IMG/VR virus record: IMGVR_UViG_2700989509_000022
DNA from: a virus
Taxonomy: Duplodnaviria; Heunggongvirae; Uroviricota; Caudoviricetes
Strand: one strand, 5' to 3'
Length of the DNA stretch: 14,452 nucleotides
Shown here one piece after another: positions 1,722-14,452 of the stretch. The position numbers and the translations under genes were made by a program. Numbering within the stretch: the first letter of the stretch is position 1; the number at the start of each line of letters is the position of its first letter. The notes under the pieces are model-generated. The model had not been told where the DNA came from, did not search any database, and was given only the letters and a program-made list of their open reading frames with translations.

Positions 1722-2033
1722 AGCCTGCTTCTCCTTGCCTTCCGGCACGTAAGAGGCTAACCTACATGTGTCTAGCATAAATTGGCCTCAGATTAATGTT
1801 AAGCGTCTTGCAGGACGCGTAATGTTAACTGGGGCTTTTCTCTATCTGCCTTTGGTGTTCATGCCTGAGACAGATAGCCTCAAGCACCCGCAGCCATTCT
1901 ACTTAACTCCCGTTACCCCGCCAATATGAAATCAGTCAGAAAGGCGATCCATAAGAATAATGAATTCTGTAAGGCAATAGTCTCACTGTCTAACATATCT
2001 TACCTGATTACTTTACAATATAATAATTCATAG

Positions 2034-2678
2034 TTAAATCAAATGAATGTCATCATCCAATAATTCATTAGTAGTAATACTACCTTTTTTGAAAAAATTT
2101 TCATTTGCCTCAGCAATTTTTGCATCATTAACAAATTCATCACACATCCCAAAATAATGAAAAAATCTATTTAGTTTACATATTCCAATGGTATAGTGCC
2201 CTTTAGGTGTTTTGTCCACATAAACACGATTTGCTTTTATAATATGCATCTCATAATCATCTATATGTGGATGAACGATGCGAAATGATGCAGATGCAGT
2301 TGGATAGTTTTTGCGCCGCCCCCCATTTATTACGGGTTCAAATAACACTTCATTTTTACCTTTGAATTCATTGCAGTCAGGACATACTACACATAGATTC
2401 TTAGGTTCAAAAATAAAACATAGATATTGAGATTTTGGCACAATATGCTCTATAGGAGCAGCTTGTGCAGCTCTTACCCCAATAGGCTCATGACAATATA
2501 CACATTCTAGCTTTTGTTCTTCTCTGTAATGATTTCTAATTTCTGCACGGAGAACTTGCAAATCATCATCTCCCCAGTTGGTATGCTTAAAATCTGGAGA
2601 AGACAATTTTTTCTCAATAATATCTAATGACTCTGCGCTGAATCTAATTGGATTTTTAATTTTTGGCATAAATTTCAC
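2034..2678 (-). CDS. HNH endonuclease, PtuB-like (Septu-like nuclease component)
   Basis: CVYCHEP ... IEHIVPKS ... CVVCPDCNEFKGKN gives CxxC, a catalytic His and CxxCxxCN, i.e. an HNH ββα-metal motif. Visibly AT-rich. Start is GTG at 2678 or ATG at 2669, with AGGTG upstream. Overlaps the upstream ATPase by 14-23 nt. Confidence 0.7.
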   Translation of the reverse strand: MKFMPKIKNPIRFSAESLDIIEKKLSSPDFKHTNWGDDDLQVLRAEIRNHYREEQKLECVYCHEPIGVRAAQAAPIEHIVPKSQYLCFIFEPKNLCVVCPDCNEFKGKNEVLFEPVINGGRRKNYPTASASFRIVHPHIDDYEMHIIKANRVYVDKTPKGHYTIGICKLNRFFHYFGMCDEFVNDAKIAEANENFFKKGSITTNELLDDDIHLI

Positions 2679-4029
2679 ACACCTGAGATACGGAATTTAC
2701 GAGTTCATTAATAGGGTCATTACTATTAACGTTTTCAAGGAGAAGCTGGAGTTGTTTTAATTCACGCCAATTATCATCTGTTACTAACTTAGCAGTCTTA
2801 ACTTTTGAAAGTAAATTGAAAGCTAATCTGGCAATGTATTCATTCATAATGCCAGGGGCATCAAATAGTTCCGCAAGTTGATAGTCTGCAGACCGGTTGC
2901 TAAAGTATTTTGCTTTATAAAGATAACTTTTCGACAAAGATGTTATATAACAACCTTTATTCGGCAAATTGGATATTATTTGTGGTGAATGAGTTGCAAT
3001 TATGAATTGACAACCTGAGTAAGTTAAAAATGCTTTTGTTAACATAATGATAAACTCTTCCTGCCATCGAGGATGCAAGCTTATTTCCGGTTCATCAATT
3101 AGTATTATAGAACCATCAGTTATATGCCCTGCAATTCCAAGCAACATCACTAATAAACATTGTTCTCCCGAGCTCGCACGTTTAAGTGACATGGGACCAT
3201 AGCTTTTTTTTATGAGTCGCATATCCATCAATCTCATGAAGCCAGCGTTCATAAGTTTAAGAATTGATCTAGAAAAATAATTATTCGCATAAGTCGAGCC
3301 AACCAATGTTTCACCATTGGTAAAATCGACTGACAAGGTTACAGCCCTACGTTCAGGTTCAAATCGATTAATTTCAACCAGTGCTTCGTAAATATCATGA
3401 CGTGATTCGGAGTTTAACTTTAAGAGACTCTCAATATTCTTCCTGTCAATTTTTATATTGTATTTTAAATATAACTCCTTAACTTCCGTTAATATCTCAT
3501 CTGAATATACACCAATGAAGTTATAGTCAGGAGTGTCCGGTCCGTTGTAAGTTGGTTTAAATACAAACTCTATATGGGGCTCAAAATCAATAGAATGAAA
3601 AACATCGAGTAAATTTGCAGGATTTTCTGAATAAGCAAGTTTCTCTAGCCAACCTCTCGCTGCTGAAGATAAAAGGGATACGGCATTTGATACGCCGAAG
3701 GGGCCTTCTCCACGCATACCCACATAGCGATAATTATTTTCTTTCCTTTGGTGATTTAATGACCTACGCCCTGGAGGGAATTTATCGAATGGGCTGGTAG
3801 ATACGGCAATTAACTTTGGTGTTATTTCTCTGTCAAATAATGGATTAAAAGTTTTCAAGAAATGAACATCTTGAATACAGTCTTTAGCAATCTGAGATAA
3901 CAATCTGCTTTTTCCAACGCCATTTTTACCTACAATTACTGTAAAAATATTCGCATTATCAGAAACATCACCTTCTACAGCAAGTTTTAAGGTTCGACTA
4001 TCATGATGGGTATAATATAGTCTTTTCAT
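2656..4029 (-). CDS. ABC/AAA_21-type ATPase, PtuA-like (Septu-like ATPase component)
   Basis: Walker A VGKNGVGKS, signature-like ASSGEQ, Walker B IILIDEPEISLHP and H-loop IIATHSPQI in a 457-aa ORF. AT-rich, and the stop overlaps the start of the HNH gene. Confidence 0.75.
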   Translation of the reverse strand: MKRLYYTHHDSRTLKLAVEGDVSDNANIFTVIVGKNGVGKSRLLSQIAKDCIQDVHFLKTFNPLFDREITPKLIAVSTSPFDKFPPGRRSLNHQRKENNYRYVGMRGEGPFGVSNAVSLLSSAARGWLEKLAYSENPANLLDVFHSIDFEPHIEFVFKPTYNGPDTPDYNFIGVYSDEILTEVKELYLKYNIKIDRKNIESLLKLNSESRHDIYEALVEINRFEPERRAVTLSVDFTNGETLVGSTYANNYFSRSILKLMNAGFMRLMDMRLIKKSYGPMSLKRASSGEQCLLVMLLGIAGHITDGSIILIDEPEISLHPRWQEEFIIMLTKAFLTYSGCQFIIATHSPQIISNLPNKGCYITSLSKSYLYKAKYFSNRSADYQLAELFDAPGIMNEYIARLAFNLLSKVKTAKLVTDDNWRELKQLQLLLENVNSNDPINELVNSVSQVCEIYAKN

Positions 4030-4413
4030 TTTATTTTTCTCTCATTAAAATGCTCTTAATTAAGAATACCTATGCCTTTAACAGGCTCATAGTTATGATT
4101 TGTGATGCTTTCAAAAGGGTATGTAACTAAGTATTGAACTCTACACCTAAGATTCTAAGATTTTTAAATTAAAGTAGTTAAACATGCTTTTGATTGTACT
4201 CATTCTATGTCCATCGTTGCTGCATGTCTAGATATCGTGCCCCGCTATTGTTATGTAATGATATGATGGACGCCCTGTCTGAAGCAGCCAGTGAAATATT
4301 TTTACTGTCTGCGTTTTCTACAGGAGTAAATCACATGAGCACAATCAGAGTTGTTGGTATTGATATTGACCTGTGCCCAATTTTTTGAGACATATATTGG
4401 TACGCTCTTGGCA

Positions 4414-4435
4414 CAGGGCTGCTGCTGCAGCCCTG
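4414..4435. repeat. Perfect 9-bp inverted repeat with 4-nt loop (CAGGGCTGC-TGCT-GCAGCCCTG)
   Basis: Read directly; lies within 10 nt of the stop of the recombinase remnant on the minus strand. No U-tract, so not a canonical terminator. Confidence 0.6.
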
Positions 4436-4441
4436 ACAGCT

Positions 4442-5010
4442 TTAGACTTCGATCGATTCAGAGATCTCTAATGCATCATCAACTTCTATACCCAGATAAC
4501 GAACTGTGCTTTCCGTTTTCTTATGGCCCAACGGAAGTTGGATCACCCGGAGATTCTTAGTTTTCTTGCAGACAAGGCAAGGTTTTGTTCTTCTCATGGA
4601 ATGTGTGCTGTAAAGCGAATCTTCGAGACCAAGCTTTTCTCCCCCCTATGAAAGATTCGGTTATATTGCAGGATTGATATGTGTTGGTTAGTACCGACCC
4701 GAGATCGGAACAAGTAGTCTTTACTGCGTAAATTGCCAAGCTTTATCAATGCAGAAACAGCTTCTCTTGTCCCTTTGGTTATCTCAAATTGGATAGGACT
4801 GCCAGTTTTTCAGTTGCAGCACCGTAGCTCTGCTTGAAACCGAGCTAAATCACGCGTTTTACCTTCCAGTTCAAGCCGGATTTGGAGCCCCCAGATATGA
4901 GATATCTGAAGTGGTCTTTTTGGGCCTATGATACTGTCTTTGTTCCTCGGTGACGTATTCATACTCAAATCTCCTGCAATGTGGAAGATTTGAGTATGGT
5001 TGTCTCTCAA
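4442..5010 (-). pseudogene. Decayed tyrosine recombinase/integrase with at least two frameshifts
   Basis: Minus-strand translation ending at stop 4442..4444 gives KNLRVIQLPLGHKKTESTVRYLGIEVDDALEISESIEV, a typical tyrosine-recombinase C-terminus (compare Xer DLRVIQELLGH...Y). The preceding frame (4557..4739) carries RRFALQHTFHEKNKTLPCLQEN, the HxxR box region. No single long ORF remains; the 4810..5010 piece is in a third frame. Confidence 0.55.
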
Positions 5011-5067
5011 GAGCGAAATAGGTCAACTATAACTAGTTGTTGTGCATGTACGAATTCTGCCAATTAA

Positions 5068-5910
5068 TTATTGACAATAAAAAATTCTGGAATGTTCGAA
5101 ATCATCATATCGAATTATAATCTGGTTGACTGCATCTATTGTTGGCGCCATTTCAGTTATAATATCTCGATAACCTAAAGAGTTAAATACATTTACTAAG
5201 GCCTCACACCGCAGGCCAATAGCAATTACGACATTATAAATTGCCAGCCGTTTATTTTCTTGTTTAACTGCAAGAGTGAGTTCGATAGCAGTAGTTTTAT
5301 CGCTTTGGATTGCATTATATAGAGATACTATATTTGCCATATCATCAGAGAATGTATGTATTGAATCACAAAGAGGGACGTAATAGGCATGATAGTGTGT
5401 TTCCCAGCCAATTACTTCGAAAAGCTTTTTGGTTCCAGGATATTCAGGTGTATTTGGCCACAATCTATTAAACATATCAGTTAGCTCTTTTCCGATACGA
5501 ATCCTTTCATCTGCTGCTGGATTAGTCATTTCTTTGGATTTTAAACACTCCAGCCACCGTTTCCCATTACTATGAACTAATTTCTTACTACCCTTGAGTA
5601 ATGCTTGTGCATTTTTTCCATCATCAATTGCTATATAAAATTGATTGGCAGCCTGTTCCATTATAACTCTAGTTAATACTTCCGATGCTGAAAAGGCTCC
5701 GGTACTCAAAGAAAATATAGCCTGATTACTAAGTTCATTCAGTACATTAAAGTAATGTAAAACCATCAATTTTTGTTCCACCCCCTTTAGGTTATCTATT
5801 TTATTTTTATGCCTCTCAAATTTCGCATGGATATATTTATTTATCGCGGCTATTTTTTTTACATCTTCGTCGAAATCAAACGGGCAACGTCCAAACGATT
5901 TTTTCCTCAT
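5068..5910 (-). CDS. Hypothetical protein (280 aa), AT-rich cargo gene of unknown function
   Basis: ATG at 5910 with AGGAGG 5 nt upstream. Composition differs from the flanking prophage genes. I recognise no catalytic motif. Confidence 0.8.
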   Translation of the reverse strand: MRKKSFGRCPFDFDEDVKKIAAINKYIHAKFERHKNKIDNLKGVEQKLMVLHYFNVLNELSNQAIFSLSTGAFSASEVLTRVIMEQAANQFYIAIDDGKNAQALLKGSKKLVHSNGKRWLECLKSKEMTNPAADERIRIGKELTDMFNRLWPNTPEYPGTKKLFEVIGWETHYHAYYVPLCDSIHTFSDDMANIVSLYNAIQSDKTTAIELTLAVKQENKRLAIYNVVIAIGLRCEALVNVFNSLGYRDIITEMAPTIDAVNQIIIRYDDFEHSRIFYCQ

Positions 5911-6349
5911 ATATTCCTCCTGTTTTACAATCTCCCATAAGTTGGAAAATTATACACTGGAGATTACCTATAAATAACTGCGCACGATAGCTAGTCAGTG
6001 CAAGAAGTACAACCAAGTGAACGGTGCGTATCAGATACCTAGCTTAAAGTTCGCGATAGCCGTACTCTGTGTATTAGCTCAGACATTACCTGACAGGTTG
6101 AGTAGATAGAATCGAATCAAAGCTGACAGTCTGGTTTGGACTGTGGGGTCAACCGATGGATGCAACACACAGCGATCTACAGACATTACTAACATAGCGG
6201 TGTATTAATCATCGGGGAGCAGATCAGACTAACATTAAGCATTAGTAGTAATTTGCAGAGCATCCGTTTCTTACACAAAGCAAACCCCCACGCTAGCCCA
6301 ACCCTGTGCCACACAATGTCAATTCACATCTGAACTAATGCTCTTTAAT

Positions 6350-6624
6350 CTAGTAACGTCTAAAATATCGAACATTTCCCTGATAAAATGCCAGTATGCG
6401 CTGCATAACTTCACTCATTGTGGTGGTTTCTTCCGGCAGTTCTGCCTGCGCTGGCTGTTCCTGCTGAACGTTGTTATAAGCCACACGCCAGGTGTACGCG
6501 CTTTTATCAACAAAACCAGCCTTTTTCAGTTCCCATAGTTCGTTCAGCACTTCTTCACGCGCGCAGCAAGTTCTATGGATGTGGCTTTTCCCATTGCTTT
6601 CAGTGCGTCAAAAACAGTCTCCAT
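6350..6624 (-). pseudogene. Ren-like winged-helix protein gene, apparent single-base frameshift
   Basis: ATG at 6624 with GGGAGG 6 nt upstream gives [26 protein letters not shown] then TGA. The adjacent frame continues [26 protein letters not shown]...[18 protein letters not shown] with no ATG. The joined product resembles lambda Ren as I recall it, and the gene sits directly after the P-like gene as ren does in lambda. Confidence 0.5.
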
Positions 6625-6656
6625 AAATTTCCTCCCGGTAAAAATTACTTCTCAAC

Positions 6657-7322
6657 TCAGACAAGCCCAGCCGCTTTCCGGCGTTCATATTCCTGTTTCA
6701 GCAACTCAATTGGCGTTGGCCCCGACGGGCGTTTGGGTGCCGCCAGTTGTCGCCGGACTGGCGGAACACTCAGGCCGTTACTAACATGCTTTGCCCATTT
6801 CGTCAGCTGCCGTTCTGCAAGCCGTTTTAACTCCCCTTCGGTCATCTGCCGCTCAATCCCCTTTGAACGCATCTCGAGGCAAATGTGATACAGCACAGGC
6901 TGAGACCACGGGTATTTATCGCTCCCGTCGTATCGCCAGGACTCGTTGCGCCAGCGACGGTACTCCTCCATCACGGCATCCACCGTCAGACCGAATGGAT
7001 TGGCTCCGCTTTCAGAAATCAGCGCCACAAACTCAGCCAGGTCCGGAGGCCATGTTTCACCCGCCCGGCAGCGGTCCATGCACTGGCGGCAGACCTGTCG
7101 GATTTGCTGCTCAGTCATCGCACCAATCTGTGCAATCCAGAGCTTCGAAGGTGCGGCCCCGTTCTTCTGGGTCCAGCGGTTCGAATAAACCTCCCCCATG
7201 AGTTCCCACAGCTTCCAGGCCGTTTCCGTCGCTGATAAATCCGTTTTCACGTTCCCACTGCTCACGTGCTGCCCGAATTTCCTGAACTGCCCGTGATGCG
7301 GTGTCACCTGGTGCTGCTGCAT
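6657..7322 (-). CDS. Replication protein P-like (helicase loader)
   Basis: YPWSQPVLYHICLEMRSKGIERQMTEGELKRLAERQLTKWAKHV parallels the lambda P C-terminal region (recalled). ATG at 7322 with AGGGGG 6 nt upstream. The first ~210 nt overlap the O-like gene out of frame; alternative in-frame starts exist at 7199 and 7118. Confidence 0.7.
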   Translation of the reverse strand: MQQHQVTPHHGQFRKFGQHVSSGNVKTDLSATETAWKLWELMGEVYSNRWTQKNGAAPSKLWIAQIGAMTEQQIRQVCRQCMDRCRAGETWPPDLAEFVALISESGANPFGLTVDAVMEEYRRWRNESWRYDGSDKYPWSQPVLYHICLEMRSKGIERQMTEGELKRLAERQLTKWAKHVSNGLSVPPVRRQLAAPKRPSGPTPIELLKQEYERRKAAGLV

Positions 7323-8151
7323 GGTTTACCCCCTTGCTGACTGGTTTAACCTGCGCCCTGACGTGATTTACGTGACGGGCGAATTTCTGCTCCCACTGAA
7401 TCTGCGTAAACACTTTCCCCTCAGCAGCCCAGTAGTCCCGGAAGGCGGCAAGTTCAGCAGGTGTGAATTCTGTCTCCGGCAAAGCCATCCCCCACAACGC
7501 AGCCCGTCGTCGAAAATCCCGTGACGGATACCAGCTATCGGTCATCGGAAATTTTTCGATGGGTTCGCTCAGGCCATCCAGGAATACAGGAGGTGCAGCC
7601 TGTAACGACAAAACTTTCTGCTCACTGGTCGGAGCACTCTCGCGTGCGTTATGTGTGGGGTTTAGCTCTTTGGGTTCCTTTGGGTTCCGTGATCCGTTTT
7701 TGGGTGTCTTTGATGGAAAATTTGGGTGTCTTTGGTTATTTTCCATGCAGCTAAGAGTTCCGTTTTTGGGTCTGTTTTGTGCTGAAACATAACCATTTTC
7801 GGTACTGTTTTTATTAACAGCACCGATTTTACCCACCTTTAAAGACTCCCGTTTTTGGGTGTATTCAGGCTCGGCAACACTTTCTTCTACACCGATAAGT
7901 CGGTACACCACAATTTGCTTTGTTCTGCCTTTTCTCTCACCGGTATCAACAATTAACCCAATCTCCATCAGGTGTCGTAAGCTGTCCTGCACAGTCTTTT
8001 TGTTCAGTTCCGTTACTTCTGCCAGTGCAGATACAGACGGGTATGCACACAAATCGGCACCGCACATATCAGCAAGCCAGGTCAATACTGACTTACTGGA
8101 TGAACTGCCGGTTTTCACCTTTTTAGCCCATCGTAGTGCATCGATACTCAT
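7111..8151 (-). CDS. Replication initiator, O-like HTH N-terminus with DnaT-like C-terminal region
   Basis: N-terminus MSIDALRWAKK...SVSALAEVTELNKKTVQDSLRHLMEIGLI is a winged-helix/HTH. It sits between the YdaT-like and P-like genes as O does in lambdoid phages. ATG at 8151 with a G-rich RBS; the track extends the ORF to 8226. Confidence 0.65.
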   Translation of the reverse strand: MSIDALRWAKKVKTGSSSSKSVLTWLADMCGADLCAYPSVSALAEVTELNKKTVQDSLRHLMEIGLIVDTGERKGRTKQIVVYRLIGVEESVAEPEYTQKRESLKVGKIGAVNKNSTENGYVSAQNRPKNGTLSCMENNQRHPNFPSKTPKNGSRNPKEPKELNPTHNARESAPTSEQKVLSLQAAPPVFLDGLSEPIEKFPMTDSWYPSRDFRRRAALWGMALPETEFTPAELAAFRDYWAAEGKVFTQIQWEQKFARHVNHVRAQVKPVSKGVNHAAAPGDTASRAVQEIRAAREQWERENGFISDGNGLEAVGTHGGGLFEPLDPEERGRTFEALDCTDWCDD

Positions 8152-8674
8152 ACGACCCCCTGGCAGACATTTGTTTATCTGCAAAGTAATATTGATATTG
8201 CTGACGATACGCATGCTTGAAAGCAATAGCTTTTTCTATAAGCTCGTCAGTCTCACGTTCCACAACAGATGGATCCGCAAAAAGCAGCCCGGACTCCACC
8301 ACATCGCCATATTCTTTGTTTAATCCGGCGATCATGTACGTAATGCTTTTTCCATCACTGATCTCACGATACAGCCTGAAATCACTAATTCGGATAGCCT
8401 CCATAATTGCCGGAATCAGCGCCGTGAATTTTTTCCGCTTATCCCTGGTGTCGATAGCTTTCCAGCGTTCGAATATCTTCACCCGGTTAACGCACAGCGC
8501 CCGTTGATCAACCTCGCCATCATTAAACGTGACGCGTTGAACATCGATGTTCGGACGTTCTTTCAGAGCCCAGAATGCTTCCGTGATTAATATCGTCGCC
8601 TGCTCCTGTGTCATTCCTGGTCGGCATACCCAGGCATCCAGAGCCTCACAAACCTGTTCAGGGGTGATTTTCAT
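8123..8674 (-). CDS. YdaT-like (CII-position) prophage regulatory protein
   Basis: MKITPEQVCEALDAW... and KIFERWKAIDTRDKRKKFTALIPAIMEAI resemble Rac YdaT as I recall it. It occupies the position after the cro-like gene. Confidence 0.5.
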   Translation of the reverse strand: MKITPEQVCEALDAWVCRPGMTQEQATILITEAFWALKERPNIDVQRVTFNDGEVDQRALCVNRVKIFERWKAIDTRDKRKKFTALIPAIMEAIRISDFRLYREISDGKSITYMIAGLNKEYGDVVESGLLFADPSVVERETDELIEKAIAFKHAYRQQYQYYFADKQMSARGSYEYRCTTMG

Positions 8675-8885
8675 TGTTCAACCGCCCCGCCCGCTTTGCC
8701 TTACGATATTCGTCATAAACTTTGGGGTCGTACTGAAGTTCCCCGCCGGATGCCTCTTGCAGGCGCATCGCGCGACCTTCAGGAACCAGTTCCCCCCATT
8801 GAGAAACAGCAGATGGATCAACACCAGCAGCTTTCGCTACTTTGGCTTTCGTCCCATAAAAATTAATTACGTCTGATTTAAACAT
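8658..8885 (-). CDS. DicC/Cro-like HTH regulator (75 aa)
   Basis: MFKSDVINFYGTKAKVAKAAGVDPSAVSQWGELVPEGRAMRLQEASGGELQYDPKVYDEYRK, divergent from the repressor gene. ATG at 8885 with GGAGG 5 nt upstream. Confidence 0.75.
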   Translation of the reverse strand: MFKSDVINFYGTKAKVAKAAGVDPSAVSQWGELVPEGRAMRLQEASGGELQYDPKVYDEYRKAKRAGRLNNENHP

Positions 8886-8962
8886 CACCCCTCCAAAGTT
8901 GAGTTTTCTCAATAGTAATCACTCAAGGAATCTCAAGTCAAGGGTTATTAAGATATCTAAAT
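8886..8962. promoter_or_regulatory. OR-like divergent promoter/operator region between the cro-like and repressor genes
   Basis: Minus-strand TTGACT (8936..8941), 18-nt spacer, TACTAT (8912..8917). Inverted repeat TTGAGTTTTCTCAA at 8899..8912 abuts the -10. The repressor ATG at 8963 has no Shine-Dalgarno, so it may be leaderless like lambda cI from PRM (inference). Confidence 0.55.
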
Positions 8963-9750: not shown

Positions 9751-10668
9751 ATGTACAGAAAACAGCAGCTCATACATTGCATTCTGTGCTGCGAGAAATC
9801 GGGAAAGATATTGCAAGCGAGCCAGCAACAGGAACCGGAAAAAGTCTGCACCGCCTGCGGTCAGAGCGGTGGCGGCAACTGCCCTGATTGTGGCGCGGTG
9901 ATGGGTGACACAACATACCAGGAAATATTCGATGAAGAGAATCAGCCTGAAGTTCAGGAAAATGATCCGGAGGAAATGGAAGGTACTGCACATCAGCACA
10001 AGGAGAACACTGGCGGCAATCAGCATCATGCCAGCGATAGTGAAACTGGCGAGGCGTCAGATCCCTTAATTAAGGCGAACAGTCATCATAATCTCACATC
10101 CACCAGCAGAGCGGGGATTCATCTGATGATCGACCTTGAAACCATGGGAAAAAATCCCGATGCCCCGATTATCTCAATAGGCGCAATATTTTTCGATCCG
10201 CAAACCGGAGATATGGGACCAGAATTTAGCAAGACCATCGATCTGGATACTGCTGGCGGAGTCATTGATCGTGACGTCATTAAATGGTGGCTGAAGCAAT
10301 CACGTGAAGCGCAGTCTGCCATTATGACCGATGAAATCCCGTTAGATGATGCACTACTGCAATTGCGGGAATTTATCGACGAAAACTCCGGTGAATTTTT
10401 TGTTCAGGTCTGGGGTAATGGGGCCAACTTCGACAACGTGATTTTACGCCGTTCATACGAACGACAGGGTATCCCCTGCCCGTGGCGCTACAGCAACGAT
10501 CGCGATGTACGCACAATCGTTGAGCTGGGGAAAGCCATAGACTTCGATGCCAGAACTGCTATCCCATTCGAAGGTGAGCACCATAATGCACTTGATGACG
10601 CTCGTTACCAGGCAAAATACGTTTCAGCTATCTGGCAAAAACTGATCCCGAGTCAGGCTGATTTTTAA
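9751..10668 (+). CDS. DEDDh 3'-5' exonuclease-domain protein with Cys-rich/acidic N-terminal region; start uncertain
   Basis: Exo motifs MIDLET (D-x-E), WGNGANFD and HHNALDDA (H-x4-D). Possible starts: 9751 (no SD; CxxCC...CxxC...CxxC zinc-ribbon-like), 10126 (MIDLETMG with GGGGA upstream), or a frameshifted fusion with the 54-codon ORF at 9726..9887, which has a good RBS. Confidence 0.7.
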   Translation: MYRKQQLIHCILCCEKSGKILQASQQQEPEKVCTACGQSGGGNCPDCGAVMGDTTYQEIFDEENQPEVQENDPEEMEGTAHQHKENTGGNQHHASDSETGEASDPLIKANSHHNLTSTSRAGIHLMIDLETMGKNPDAPIISIGAIFFDPQTGDMGPEFSKTIDLDTAGGVIDRDVIKWWLKQSREAQSAIMTDEIPLDDALLQLREFIDENSGEFFVQVWGNGANFDNVILRRSYERQGIPCPWRYSNDRDVRTIVELGKAIDFDARTAIPFEGEHHNALDDARYQAKYVSAIWQKLIPSQADF

Positions 10669-10720: not shown

Positions 10721-10930
10721 ATGGCTATGAGCAGCTTATTTTTAACCGAAGATGAATTGCTAATATTAACAGGCTGCAAATATGCAAGCCACCAGCGAAA
10801 ATGGTTAATGGAAAACGGGCTTCCGTTCTATACCAATCGTAGTGGCAAACCGATTGTCAGCCGGGATCTATTTACCTGCAATAAAACTTTACCACCACGC
10901 GAGGTAGAGCCGAATTTTGGTGCAATCTGA
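10721..10930 (+). CDS. xis: Excisionase-like protein (69 aa, DUF4224-like)
   Basis: Small ORF immediately upstream of int; its TGA overlaps the int ATG (TGATG). LTEDELLILTGCKYASHQRKWLMENGLPFY resembles lambdoid Xis-position proteins (recalled). Confidence 0.65.
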   Translation: MAMSSLFLTEDELLILTGCKYASHQRKWLMENGLPFYTNRSGKPIVSRDLFTCNKTLPPREVEPNFGAI

Positions 10931-11955
10931 TGGGAAGACGAAGGAAAAATCCTGAACACGAAAAATTACCTCCAAATGTATACCCAAATAAATATAGTTA
11001 TGTATGGAAACCAACATCCAGAGAATCTGTAACACTAACCGCCATCAAGGATGGTTTAGCTGCTTTATGGAAAAAGTATGAGGAAACTGTAAATAATCAC
11101 GATCGTGCAATGACATTCGGTCGCTTGTGGGAAAAATTCCTCGCCAGCGCCTATTACAGTGACCTTAGTCCAAGAACACAAAAAGATTATCTGCAACATC
11201 AAAAAAAGTTGCTTGCCGTATTCGGTAAGGTACCAGCGGATGCCATAAAACCAGAACACATCCGTCGATACATGGACAAAAGAGGGGAGCAGAGTAAAAC
11301 GCAAGCCAACCATGAAAAAAGCAGTATGTCCCGCGTTTACAGTTGGGGGTATGAGCGAGGTTACGTGAAGGGTAACCCATGTGCAGGTGTAAGTAAATTC
11401 AAGGCCAAAAACCGCGAACGATATGTAACCGACAAAGAATACCAGGCAGTATTAAGCGTTGCACCTCTTCCTGTTTTTATCGCAATGGAAATTGCCTATC
11501 TGTGTGCAGCGAGGGTTTCCGATGTGTTATCACTGAAATGGGAGCAGATTGGAAACGACGGGATCTTTATCCAGCAAGGGAAAACAGGGAAAAAACAGAT
11601 AAAAGCATGGAGTCCACGATTACAGGCGGCGATCGAAAAAGCAAAACAGTTACCAGCATCCGTCTATGTAATCAGCAATCAATATGGCAACCGATATATG
11701 TACAAAGGCTTTAACGAAATGTGGGTAGAAGCAAGAAATCGCGCAGGCAAAATTTCAGGTATTTTAACCGACTTCACCTTTCATGATCTGAAGGCGAAAG
11801 GAATTTCAGACTATGAAGGAAGCAGCCGGGATAAGCAACTTTTCTCTGGTCACAAAACCGAGGGGCAAGTGCTAATCTATGACAGGAAGGTTAAAGTTTC
11901 ACCAACACTTGATGTCCCGTTACCTGAAAATATTCCAAGAAAATATTCCAAGTAA
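10930..11955 (+). CDS. int: Tyrosine-recombinase phage integrase
   Basis: 341-aa ORF with C-terminal catalytic region (...FHDLKAKGISDY...SGHKTEGQVLIYDRK...), ending 52 bp from the 3' end of tRNA-Ser. Confidence 0.9.
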   Translation: MGRRRKNPEHEKLPPNVYPNKYSYVWKPTSRESVTLTAIKDGLAALWKKYEETVNNHDRAMTFGRLWEKFLASAYYSDLSPRTQKDYLQHQKKLLAVFGKVPADAIKPEHIRRYMDKRGEQSKTQANHEKSSMSRVYSWGYERGYVKGNPCAGVSKFKAKNRERYVTDKEYQAVLSVAPLPVFIAMEIAYLCAARVSDVLSLKWEQIGNDGIFIQQGKTGKKQIKAWSPRLQAAIEKAKQLPASVYVISNQYGNRYMYKGFNEMWVEARNRAGKISGILTDFTFHDLKAKGISDYEGSSRDKQLFSGHKTEGQVLIYDRKVKVSPTLDVPLPENIPRKYSK

Positions 11956-12007: not shown

Positions 12008-12097
12008 TGGCGGAGAGAGGGGGATTTGAACCCCCGGTGGAGTTGCCCCCACTCCGGTTTTCGAGACCGGTCCGTTCAGCCGCTCCGGCATCTCTCC
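12008..12097 (-). tRNA. serU: tRNA-Ser (anticodon CGA)
   Basis: Reverse complement reads GGAGAGATGCCGGAGCGGCTGAACGGACCGGTCTCGAAAACC...GGTTCAAATCCCCCTCTCTCCGCCA: type II tRNA with long variable arm, anticodon loop CUCGAAA, encoded CCA. The serU-mtfA-asnT context fits E. coli. Confidence 0.93.
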
Positions 12098-13288: not shown

Positions 13289-13535
13289 TGAACGCCATCA
13301 CCATTTTCCCCTCGATTATAAAACTTGAGTTATTCAGTAGTCTCCCCTCTTGCAACTCACCCCCAAAACTGCCTAACGAAAAGTTATTAATTTTCAATCA
13401 TATTGCTATCAGGATTTACATTTTTTCGCTGTGCTAGAAAGGGGTAAGCGTACAGCCTGAACCGTCTGGTCAGAATCTGACGAATTAGACAAAGTGGTGT
13501 CCACCAAATAAGTAGTGGGAACCAAAGTATCAGAT

Positions 13536-13916
13536 ATGCAGAAAAATGTGACTCCCGGCAGGCGAAAAGGCTGCCCTAATTATCCTCCCGAATTTAAACA
13601 GCAGCTCGTTGCTGCCTCCTGTGAACCCGGGATATCCATCTCAAAACTTGCTCTTGAAAATGGCATTAACGCCAATCTGTTGTTCAAATGGCGACAACAA
13701 TGGCGCGAGGGAAAGCTGCTATTACCTTCTTCAGAGAGCCCCCAGCTACTTCCTGTGACTCTCGATGCAGCTGCCGAACAGCCAGAATCGCTCGCAGAGG
13801 ACCCGGAAACCCTCAGTATCAGCTGTGAGGTAACGTTCCGGCACGGGACGCTCCGCTTCAATGGCAATGTCAGCGAAAAGCTCCTGACTCTGCTGATACA
13901 GGAACTGAAGCGATGA
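13536..13916 (+). CDS. tnpA: IS66-family accessory protein TnpA (orfA)
   Basis: MQKNVTPGRRKGCPNYPPEFKQQLVAAS... is typical of IS66 orfA (recalled). The track ORF begins at GTG 13515; ATG at 13536 preferred. Confidence 0.8.
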   Translation: MQKNVTPGRRKGCPNYPPEFKQQLVAASCEPGISISKLALENGINANLLFKWRQQWREGKLLLPSSESPQLLPVTLDAAAEQPESLAEDPETLSISCEVTFRHGTLRFNGNVSEKLLTLLIQELKR

Positions 13917-14260
13917 TCCCGTTACCTTCCGGGACCAAAATTTGGCTGGTTGCCGGTATCACCGATATGAGAAATGGCTTCAACGGCCTGGCTGCGAAAG
14001 TACAGACGGCGCTGAAAGACGATCCCATGTCCGGCCATGTTTTCATTTTCCGGGGCCGCAGCGGCAGTCAGGTTAAACTGCTGTGGTCCACCGGTGACGG
14101 GCTGTGCCTCCTGACCAAACGGCTGGAGCGTGGGCGCTTCGCCTGGCCGTCAGCCCGTGATGGCAAAGTGTTCCTTACGCAGGCGCAGCTGGCGATGCTG
14201 CTGGAAGGTATCGACTGGCGACAGCCTAAGCGGCTGCTGACCTCCCTGACCATGCTGTAA
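13913..14260 (+). CDS. tnpB: IS66-family Orf2 (TnpB)
   Basis: MIPLPSGTKIWLVAGITDMRNGFNGLAAKVQ...; start overlaps the tnpA stop (ATGA). Confidence 0.85.
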   Translation: MIPLPSGTKIWLVAGITDMRNGFNGLAAKVQTALKDDPMSGHVFIFRGRSGSQVKLLWSTGDGLCLLTKRLERGRFAWPSARDGKVFLTQAQLAMLLEGIDWRQPKRLLTSLTML

Positions 14261-14309
14261 ATCTCTTTATCCTGGTTGTCACAGAATAAGCCCGGTAAAA
14301 TACGGGCTT

Positions 14310-14452
14310 ATGAACGACATCTCTTCTGACGACATCTTCCTGCTGAAACAGCGCCTGGCCGAACAGGAAGCGCTGATCCACGCCCTGCAGGAAAAGCTGA
14401 GCAACCGGGAGCGCGAAATAGACCATCTGCAGGCGCAGCTGGATAAACTCCG
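14310..14452 (+). CDS. tnpC: IS66-family transposase TnpC, N-terminal fragment (truncated by window end)
   Basis: ORF open to the window end: MNDISSDDIFLLKQRLAEQEALIHALQEKLSNREREIDHLQAQLDKL, the coiled-coil N-terminus typical of IS66 transposases. Confidence 0.75.
   Translation, partial: MNDISSDDIFLLKQRLAEQEALIHALQEKLSNREREIDHLQAQLDKL

Follow-up and report, generated by a model that had tools for sequence, protein, structure and literature searches.

What is the AT-rich block that lies between the replication genes and the hok/sok locus of a Qin/Rac-like lambdoid prophage, and by which route did its genes come together? The question is raised by the IMG/VR record IMGVR_UViG_2700989509_000022, a stretch of 14,452 nucleotides that is called the window here and that holds the early region of such a prophage, integrated at tRNA-Ser(cga) (12008–12097). 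The cargo proper occupies window 1962–6261, about 4.3 kb, and the genes named there by a first-pass annotation are all present on the minus strand: an ATPase gene, an HNH nuclease gene, a gene for a 280-aa protein and a recombinase pseudogene, together with two coding-poor spacers (4030–4441 and 5911–6349). As a whole, the locus is best explained, with a probability of about 0.7, as a defence cargo of two cassettes that has become frozen in a hypervariable slot of Qin/Rac-like prophages.

The slot is located between the replication module (O, P, DUF1627 and DUF977) and hok/sok. In the window its conserved anchors, all on the minus strand, are the lambda-P-like gene of replication protein P (6657–7322; Pfam Phage_lambda_P, 1.1e-16) and, outside the cargo at the other end, the hok/mok reading frame (1566–1778; Pfam HOK_GEF, 1.3e-23; annotated by RefSeq as hokD, 1567–1722, in the identical locus L001) with the sok antisense RNA/hok mRNA leader (1716–1889; Rfam RF01794, 113.5 bits against a gathering threshold of 59, E 1e-25). 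The Hok peptide gene and the overlapping sok antisense RNA, recognized by Pfam and Rfam, make this a type I toxin–antitoxin locus. Flanking genes are 88–97% identical in prophages in which the slot has other content. Comparison with loci of different cargo (L002–L006, L008, L011, L163 and L164) revealed AbiLi and AbiLii in L002 and, in other related prophages, an alpha/beta hydrolase, a Paa adhesin with a fimbrial gene remnant, an S-adenosylmethionine methyltransferase or eight small open reading frames (ORFs). A wider sweep added FRG, SIR2 and AIPR genes, a KwaB-like gene with QueH, adenosine deaminase with SIR2, a Sll1717-type ATPase, and SMEK with a methyltransferase.

The variable cassette and its anchors, which the first-pass annotation had expected a comparison of related prophages to define, are thereby delimited. 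The same genes at uniform composition and with no variability at this position, the picture that would speak against an island, is not what is seen, because prophages that share the flanks carry different cargo. The locus is a genuine cargo island and a prophage defence hotspot. The exact island was found in 19 of 5,426 complete Escherichia coli genomes, including E2348/69, with 99.6–100% identity, and in eight IMG/VR contigs, and in these copies it is always met as one unit. Strain 2013C-4974 was considered as an independent context and set aside, as it has the same tRNA-Ser prophage with a deletion associated with an insertion sequence (IS) of the IS3 type; in relatives, the region is broken by IS481 (E2348/69) or IS3 elements.

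Hotspots of P2 and P4 prophages (Rousset et al. 2022, PMC9122126; PMC13586616) likewise present a fixed slot between conserved phage genes in which defence cargo is rapidly swapped. The slot described here differs in its position, in lambdoid prophages of Qin/Rac type with hok/sok on one side and the replication genes on the other, and in its boundaries, which are specific palindromes often accompanied by a small recombinase; word searches of both papers returned no mention of recombinases, palindromes or repeats in the hotspots. The island itself is ordinary and fits this known class of prophage defence hotspot.

The AT-rich character proposed for the block is borne out by the window profile, in which the GC fraction is 0.30–0.38 across 1800–4200 and 5000–6000 and 0.45–0.58 in the flanks. 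The island (1961–6261) has 0.366, against 0.512 in the left flank and 0.473 in the right one, that is, 36.6% against 47–51%. The GC content at third codon positions (GC3) is 0.21 in the HNH nuclease gene ptuB, 0.28 in the ATPase gene ptuA and 0.27 in the gene of the 280-aa protein, against 0.38–0.66 in the prophage genes. The recombinase unit, with 44.7% GC, is unlike the cargo.

The edges had to be moved. The island had been made to start at 1780, but 1780–1889 is the conserved sok RNA/hok leader, and the hok-side edge is now placed at about 1962, because homology to related prophages (L002–L006, L008) extends to 1916–1961. On the replication side, the cargo ends at about 6261 beside a deletion scar, since window 6252–6418 derives from DUF977, whose 3′ end and downstream flank it comprises. 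In the scar (6286–6626, minus strand) these sequences, which run to about 6418, are joined to the 5′ part of DUF1627 (6420–6626), as blastn matches to L008 7554–7718 and L011 10756–10900 showed; homology to intact DUF1627 genes begins at 6420–6479, and RefSeq places a truncated DUF1627 pseudogene at 6424–6626. The ORF at 6350–6550 that had been read as Ren-like has no Pfam or PADLOC match and joins a 5′ fragment of DUF1627 to the 3′ end of DUF977. Nor did the island take the place of nin-region genes: the rusA/DUF968/Q block of this phage type is positioned downstream of hok.

The suspicion of a defence cargo proved right for the ATPase/HNH pair, which, judged by profile matches and motifs, is an intact type I Septu operon. 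The product of ptuB (2034–2678, minus strand; 214 aa from a GTG start, 211 aa in RefSeq) matches PADLOC model PDLC00325 over its full length (1.1e-83) and Pfam HNH with 23.9 bits against a cut-off of 21.4. That of ptuA (2656–4029, minus strand; 457 aa), an ABC-type ATPase, matches PDLC00283 (1.2e-165, residues 2–455 on a 448-position model) and, above cut-off, Pfam AAA_21 and AAA_15. The genes overlap by 23 nt. Motifs are intact in PtuB (CVYC59, E77-H78, N94, C96xxC99, C102-N103) and in PtuA (Walker A G34-K40-S41, SSGE286, Walker B D312-E313, H347). A weak candidate sigma-70 promoter for ptuAB (4202–4230, minus strand; TAGACA-17-TAGAAT) has 10 of 12 consensus matches, in a region where the number of such sites is not above that of shuffled sequences.

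As in type I Septu, the pair in the window forms an operon in which an ABC/AAA_15-21 ATPase gene is followed by the gene of an HNH nuclease, both with intact motifs; PtuA and PtuB of this type were reportedly described by Doron et al. in 2018, and the PtuAB structure is said to come from Li et al. in 2024. The effector pair is common to Septu and to the retrons Eco7/Ec78 (type I-A), of which the reverse transcriptase (RT) ORF and the retron noncoding RNA were not detected in the window: no RT-like ORF was seen by eye in the list of ORFs down to 40 aa, with no RT profile search run on all ORFs, and the Rfam scan of the window returned no retron RNA. For these two reasons the operon is taken as a stand-alone type I Septu. 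Scores against the retron-Eco7 equivalog models are far off (PtuA 66 bits against 500, PtuB 30 against 150). In Septu EcB88, defence depends on the Walker A/B and HNH residues, takes the form of abortive infection and involves cleavage of tRNA-Tyr (PMC13096335); degradation of tRNA-Tyr is also described for the PtuAB pair of retron-Eco7 (PMC12673091). By homology to both, the PtuA ATPase would hold the PtuB nuclease in check until infection; the released PtuB would then cleave tRNA-Tyr and/or nick DNA, and infection would abort. The present allele would act like the published Septu alleles, if function follows homology. At megablast level, the Septu segment occurs only inside this island (19 RefSeq and 8 IMG/VR copies), and the nearest PtuA relatives on viral contigs are 41–50% identical.

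The 280-aa protein (5068–5910, minus strand) belongs to the DUF5677 family (Pfam DUF5677, 3.3e-9; PHROG 4167 over the full length) and is all-alpha, with a predicted HEPN-like core; the modelled fold shows the four-helix up-down core of HEPN proteins. A non-coding region upstream (5911–6227, minus strand) travels with the gene and is 85% identical to the copy in a P2-like slot; its last 44 nt (6184–6227) also adjoin the intact recombinase in L008. The family is small, with 53 matches at E up to 1e-3 among 1.84 billion representatives, and a profile search retrieved 52 relatives, mostly from Pseudomonas, Burkholderia and Erwiniaceae. The invariant residues are E77, R81, E85, Q86, N89 and Y92 on one helix, and further C181-D182-S183-x-H185, S188, R221 and Y225. 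Between the window and the P2-slot alleles the nucleotide difference is 7.6%, the ratio of nonsynonymous to synonymous substitution rates (dN/dS) is 0.33–0.36 and the length is unchanged, which argues for purifying selection.

The contexts of this gene point to defence. In E. coli B2 strains (S88, IHE3034) it occupies the gap that separates the genes for tail-fibre assembly and tail sheath in P2-like prophages; in a lambdoid prophage of Erwiniaceae, gene P is directly followed by a homologue, near DUF4365 and GAPS4-type nuclease genes; and a divergent member of the family is found in the same Qin-like slot of strain TK3888. With moderate confidence, we regard the DUF5677 protein, with its predicted HEPN-like core, as a single-gene effector of either defence or toxin type, and its gene as one that moves between phage hotspots on its own. 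Several results weigh against this assignment. The protein has no match in PADLOC (where no model exists for it), in NCBIfam or in a PDB sequence search, Foldseek comparison of the predicted fold with PDB and BFVD gave nothing significant, and a Pfam scan of 47 relatives at E up to 5 returned no HEPN family. A possible HEPN Rx4-6H motif, RYDDFEH at 267–273 (consensus RHDxFDH), is only partly kept (R267 in 40 and H273 in 32 of the 47). Finally, the only experimental record found concerns a DUF5677 ORF, enriched beside serine recombinases in Bacillota, which was tested in Enterococcus faecalis against six phages and is not among the reported defenders (PMC12632615). Compared with HEPN defence RNases (AbiV-like, Csm6), there is no family match at the sequence level, the Rx5H motif is partly kept and the invariant residues are elsewhere. 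Together, Septu and the DUF5677 protein may protect the lysogen, as far as their sequences allow a prediction.

Three other loci of the family deserve mention. In E. coli TK3888 (L163 2984–4009), a 341-aa protein annotated as DUF5677 is the sole cargo of the Qin-like slot; it has no detectable BLASTP similarity to the DUF5677 protein of the window, and a palindromic site of the kind described below lies on its hok side (the '<' polarity). In an Erwiniaceae bacterium (L030 7001–14817), gene P of a lambdoid prophage has DUF5677 directly after it and then, in this order, DUF4365, NADAR with PRTase-CE and a GAPS4-type PD-(D/E)XK gene, which looks like another post-replication defence slot. In Pseudomonas sp. 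B22129 (L028 6756–7858), an 82-aa ORF that is absent from the E. coli copies precedes the DUF5677 homologue and overlaps its start by 4 nt; the pair may be a two-gene arrangement of toxin–antitoxin type.

How the two cargo parts were brought together is suggested by the recombinase between them. Intact relatives of this gene are part of a 709-bp unit, found on prophages, plasmids, chromosomal islands and elements resembling integrative and conjugative elements (ICEs). Homology stops sharply at the ends of the unit in each of six unrelated settings, namely the window, two slots of Qin-like type, an island of CFT073, a plasmid and a chromosomal site close to ypjA. The ends of the unit and of neighbouring cargo genes are 24-nt palindromes, GTCCGCT-N10-AGCGGAC, whose 10-nt centres have two polarities that are near reverse complements, '>' (CCTGGCACAG) and '<' (CTGAGCGAGG). 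Intact copies of the recombinase are always enclosed by palindromes of opposite polarity. The slot of IPCEC31 reads '<' gene '>' recombinase '<' gene '>' '<' gene '>' DUF977, and the S88 module reads '<' hypothetical gene, recombinase, DUF5677 '>'. Cassette junctions are formed by a conserved 66-bp doublet, '>' N18 '<'. Such doublets were also located in E. coli prophages and islands at L011 9548–9613, L010 4841–4906, and L013 3984–4049 and 5371–5436; their origin as deletion derivatives of the 709-bp unit is not supported, as the N18 spacer is unlike the internal ends of the unit.

Sites with at most two mismatches are present in 6 of 7 recombinase-bearing loci, with weaker matches in the seventh (L013), and none at this threshold was found in five recombinase-less slot variants. 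The same arms occur beside recombinase homologues in Proteus and Idiomarina and beside a homologue of 53% identity in L149. In one Qin-like slot, which holds FRG as its cargo, the two boundary sites stand without a recombinase. When the IPCEC31 slot was compared with the 5,426 E. coli genomes, homology end-points lay no more than about 7 nt from the edge of a site at each of five positions, a clustering for which the chance is below 1e-7 by a rough estimate. Moreover, this prophage slot and a chromosomal island with restriction–modification and DarT genes have one '<' gene '>' cassette in common, with 99.3% identity, and the shared segment ends at both sites.

In the window, these sites are decayed. 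The '>' site of the recombinase unit (4400–4423) has one arm mutation, GTACGCTCTTGGCACAGGGCTGCT, and is followed, just after the recombinase stop, by a 9-bp GC hairpin (the whole at 4400–4441), shared with L008 and L010–L013. At the 5′ end of the unit, the '<' site (5002–5025) is heavily mutated, GTCTCTCAAGAGCGAAATAGGTCA, as seen by alignment to the intact GTCCCTTATGAGCGAGGAGTGGAC in L011 and others. The '>' site at the replication-side edge of the slot (6262–6285), ATCCGTTTCTTACACAAAGCAAAC, has 8 of 24 positions changed relative to the intact GTCCGCTCTTGGCACAAAGCGGAC in L011, L008 and L164, while its flank is still about 80% conserved. The Septu cassette (1962–4399, minus strand) abuts the '>' palindrome with its right end; at its other end, the expected hok-side '<' site and about 225 bp of flank are missing from the window, and in L008, L011, L163 and L164 this site lies about 225 bp further on. 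Since the sites are mutated or missing, the cargo would be frozen.

On these grounds, we propose that the cargo was an array of two cassettes, [ptuB-ptuA] '>' dead recombinase '<' [DUF5677] '>', assembled or exchanged through the palindromic sites. It would have been immobilized when the recombinase was lost, three of the sites mutated and the fourth was deleted, along with the DUF977/DUF1627 deletion, and the island would afterwards have spread with the prophage. This order of events is suggested by the lesions of recombinase and sites, which are identical in every copy whose recombinase region was examined: as all share them, decay probably came before the spread, and the cargo would now be fixed in the prophage lineage.

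A number of findings count against a role of the sites in this history. A scan for the '>' pattern, with one genome per species, gave at least 120 loci, and among the matches listed (at most 8 kb each) only 2 of 120 hold a recombinase homologue; the sites therefore greatly outnumber the gene. Many of the listed loci are from Pseudolabrys, Xanthobacteraceae and other metagenome-assembled genomes of Hyphomicrobiales (e.g. L048, L099, L106, L122 and L124). In these Alphaproteobacteria the palindrome often stands right after the stop codons of genes ending in ...EVIE*, in the manner of repetitive extragenic palindromes (REPs), and it could be a generic recombination-prone or terminator-like repeat. 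Action of the recombinase on the palindromes is itself presumed from their arrangement. The link between Septu and the recombinase is one of position only: three distant Septu loci on viral contigs have neither sites nor recombinase, and arrival of Septu through the sites is read from its position, because no '<' site and no other context of the cassette were found. We hold the functional reality of the association between palindromes and recombinase to be tentative, somewhat less probable than its absence.

Alphaproteobacterial copies are also highly repeated; each usually has a partner unit, GTCCGCTTTCGGGGGTAAAGCGGAC, at a distance of about 20 nt, so as to form a doublet, and they look like an unannotated family of REPs or of REP doublets forming hairpins (REPINs). 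In L149, eight copies were counted in 8 kb, beside the small recombinase with 53% identity. When the window and site-rich loci were scanned with Rfam, sok and tRNAs were the only matches, and none was obtained for the palindromes.

These points favour an alternative in which the cargo consists of ordinary morons, acquired by illegitimate or flank-guided homologous recombination, and the recombinase and palindromes are passengers, either a selfish mini-element or REP/REPIN-like repeats. The palindromes do far outnumber the recombinase genes and are REP-like in Alphaproteobacteria, the sharp-edged 709-bp '>' recombinase '<' unit resembles a small autonomous element, as a REP-associated tyrosine transposase (RAYT) flanked by REPs does, and no site marks the left junction of the Septu cassette. 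Against it stand the five independent homology breakpoints and the two ends of the transferred cassette, all on sites, and the recombinase-less locus L164, in which sites still bound the slot. The repeats could still be substrates of homologous recombination or of a recombinase acting in trans. We consider this alternative unlikely.

The first-pass annotation had suggested that the cargo arrived on a small integrative element of its own, since decayed. The remnant of a tyrosine recombinase that this idea was built on is present (4445–4962, minus strand), found by tblastn with the intact 200-aa protein and annotated in RefSeq as 'frameshifted; internal stop'. It has three lesions. A 73-bp deletion, placed by comparison with L007 and L008, removes residues ~43–78 and with them the catalytic arginine Arg-I; the others are an in-frame stop and, near residue 133, a frameshift. 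An inverted repeat with perfect 13-nt arms that are 13 nt apart (4960–4998; CATACTCAAATCT / AGATTTGAGTATG) overlaps the start codon, is conserved in all intact units (also in L007, L008 and L010–L013) and could be an operator or a translational hairpin. The type of enzyme does not agree with such an element. The intact homologue consists of the catalytic domain only (Phage_integrase positions 21–166 of 172, XerC model 127–281 of 295); the L008 protein has the catalytic residues of a tyrosine recombinase, LRGCD (Arg-I, by eye, near residue 51), H148-S-M-R151, LGH174 and VRY183, whereas the copy in the window is without the Arg-I segment. The arm- and core-binding domains of classical phage or ICE integrases are absent. 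The best NCBIfam match is a XerA/integron-integrase model with 53.9 bits against a cut-off of 220, scores against the Xer and FimB/E models are likewise far under their cut-offs, and every source names the protein only generically.

The recombinase is present in 869 of the 5,426 E. coli genomes. It is highly conserved in Gammaproteobacteria, with identities of 78–97% among the 120 matches listed, and was found in Escherichia, Providencia, Proteus, Pantoea, Erwinia, Sodalis, Pectobacterium, Idiomarina, Pseudoalteromonas and Cycloclasticus. Genes with 82–89% identity in marine metagenome and genome contigs (L014–L018), Idiomarina (L019–L020) and Proteus (L021–L025) have as neighbours modules for resistance to arsenic and copper, set in ICE-like backbones, and, next to gcvP, a module of eptA-pmrAB type; in Proteus, genes for TIR, an SMC-like ATPase, SIR2 with DUF87, and DUF4365 were observed. 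The association is with accessory cargo in general, not with defence only. In L008 (3454–3737), two adjacent recombinase-gene fragments of 76–78% identity stand between two hypothetical cargo genes, which suggests that this slot once held an older, now decayed, second recombinase unit.

The two parts of the island have separate relatives. Window 4478–6227, which comprises the remnant, DUF5677 and 317 nt upstream, is 86–90% identical to a module that S88, IHE3034 and dozens of further strains carry in P2-like prophages, in which the recombinase is an intact 194-aa gene and Septu is not present; the match to the S88 module ends exactly at the S88 '>' site. Window 4400–5018 is 88–92% identical to an intact recombinase gene, for 200 aa, that strain 2012EL-2448 has in its Qin-like slot, where different cargo lies on both sides and DUF5677 is precisely absent. 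As the alignments indicate, the island is a composite of at least two cassettes and not a single element.

Entry of the whole 4.5 kb as one decayed integrative element, through site-specific integration by its own integrase, is consequently improbable. It would account for a tyrosine recombinase remnant amid an AT-rich block and for an island that is always found as one unit. Nevertheless, a recombinase of 200 aa without arm- or core-binding domains is not such an integrase, its half of the island exists with DUF5677 and without Septu in P2-like prophages, its unit sits in the same slot between other cargo, and its GC content of 44.7% is not that of the cargo. The direct repeats that had been anticipated at the island edges were searched for, and no att-like pair was found; nor did the 5,426 E. 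coli genomes or IMG/VR contain the 4.3-kb block with att-like direct repeats at unrelated chromosomal or plasmid sites. An inverted repeat of 35 nt with 77% identity (4225–4259/5963–5997) is not conserved in the S88 module and was taken as chance.

AT-rich DNA is a typical target of H-NS, and the block may also be viewed as silenced, decaying junk of no current function, a view encouraged by the one pseudogene among its four genes and by the degraded neighbours DUF1627, DUF977 and DUF968. However, ptuA, ptuB and DUF5677 are of full length with intact motifs in all copies, and DUF5677 has a dN/dS of about 0.35. The identity of about 99.9% among the copies does mean that there was little time for decay, and still we judge the junk explanation to be quite improbable.

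A three-part system of Septu, recombinase and DUF5677, for instance a phase-variable or recombinase-regulated defence locus, can be dismissed as very improbable, because, although the three lie close together on one strand and the recombinase is about the size of FimB/FimE and has a perfect 13-nt inverted repeat over its start codon, it is dead in every island copy, the parts occur separately, inverted-orientation variants were not seen and the FimB/E model gives 24 bits against a cut-off of 222. The tyrosine invertases FimB/FimE are likewise proteins of about 200 aa with the catalytic domain only. As a DNA invertase switch, the locus was examined and rejected: no orientation variants or invertible segment were seen, the invertase model NF007371 scores 24.4 bits, far below its cut-off of 222, and the spacer of the 13-nt repeat is too short to invert.

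The preferred reading, a frozen two-cassette cargo, would place the island within a wider system in which a recombinase of about 200 aa, catalytic domain only, and 24-nt palindromes bound swappable accessory and defence cassettes. We regard such a system as possible but doubtful. Its architecture appears to be undescribed, and literature searches for the palindrome sequence and for REPIN with tyrosine recombinase returned no relevant paper. Three known systems offer points of comparison. The pdif modules of Acinetobacter plasmids are accessory-gene modules bounded by inversely oriented short sites of recombinase type, found in many contexts. By comparison, the sites described here are unlike dif, two of them stand at each junction ('>' N18 '<') instead of one shared site, and a dedicated small recombinase takes the place of the host XerCD.

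Integron cassettes, too, form arrays of one or a few genes beside a tyrosine recombinase, and, as in attC, the junction elements hold two pairs of inverted arms resembling binding sites. Unlike in integrons, the recombinase consists of the catalytic domain only and, by its sequence, would not be called IntI, cassettes flank it on either side, with genes in both orientations, and no attI/Pc arrangement is apparent; the junction palindromes are not attC-like in sequence, a comparison made with no attC model run. REPs and REPINs with their RAYT share with this system a single-copy gene flanked by inverted palindromic repeats that far outnumber it, doublets of fixed spacing and, in Alphaproteobacteria, repeats just after stop codons. 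The protein, however, is of the Phage_integrase (tyrosine recombinase) family and not a HUH Y1 transposase.

The remainder of the window has the gene order of a Qin/Rac-type cryptic prophage, as in the RefSeq annotation of the identical locus of strain FORC 064. Minus-strand genes are those of a cro-like protein (8658–8912), a YdaT-like protein (8123–8674) and a DnaT-domain replication protein (7111–8226) and, beyond hok, rem (1098–1349); a degraded DUF968 gene, now a pseudogene, occupies 81–752. The integrase gene is at 10930–11955, and mtfA and tRNA-Asn lie further out. Several backbone genes are degraded (the DUF968 pseudogene, the DUF1627/DUF977 fusion), and the prophage is probably cryptic. 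After tRNA-Asn, 13515–14452 holds ORFs typical of the IS66 family, TnpA-like (13515–13916) and TnpB-like (13913–14260), as judged from the translations and from the presence of annotated IS66 elsewhere in L001. A 305-aa ORF (9751–10668), placed between the immunity region and xis/int, has a Glu/His-rich N-terminal part and an apparent DEDD-type exonuclease C-terminal part; it is unlike the large 'exonuclease' gene at the equivalent position of FORC 064.

With this locus, the known defence hotspots of prophages are extended by the replication–hok/sok slot of Qin/Rac-like lambdoid phages, and Septu by one more allele, carried by E2348/69, the reference strain of enteropathogenic E. coli. DUF5677, a compact single gene with a predicted HEPN-like fold that occurs in at least two kinds of phage hotspot, is a candidate new defence effector. 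A 2026 survey of P2/P4 hotspots leaves open how they exchange genes with other mobile elements (PMC13586616). If the cassette system is real, cassettes would be swapped among lambdoid and P2-like hotspots, plasmids, ICE-like elements and chromosomal islands, in a natural counterpart to recombinase-mediated cassette exchange or to pdif modules. The system would then provide a mechanism for the exchange of defence genes between kinds of mobile elements, the gap left by that survey, and decay of the recombinase and its sites would explain how a cargo becomes fixed in a prophage lineage.

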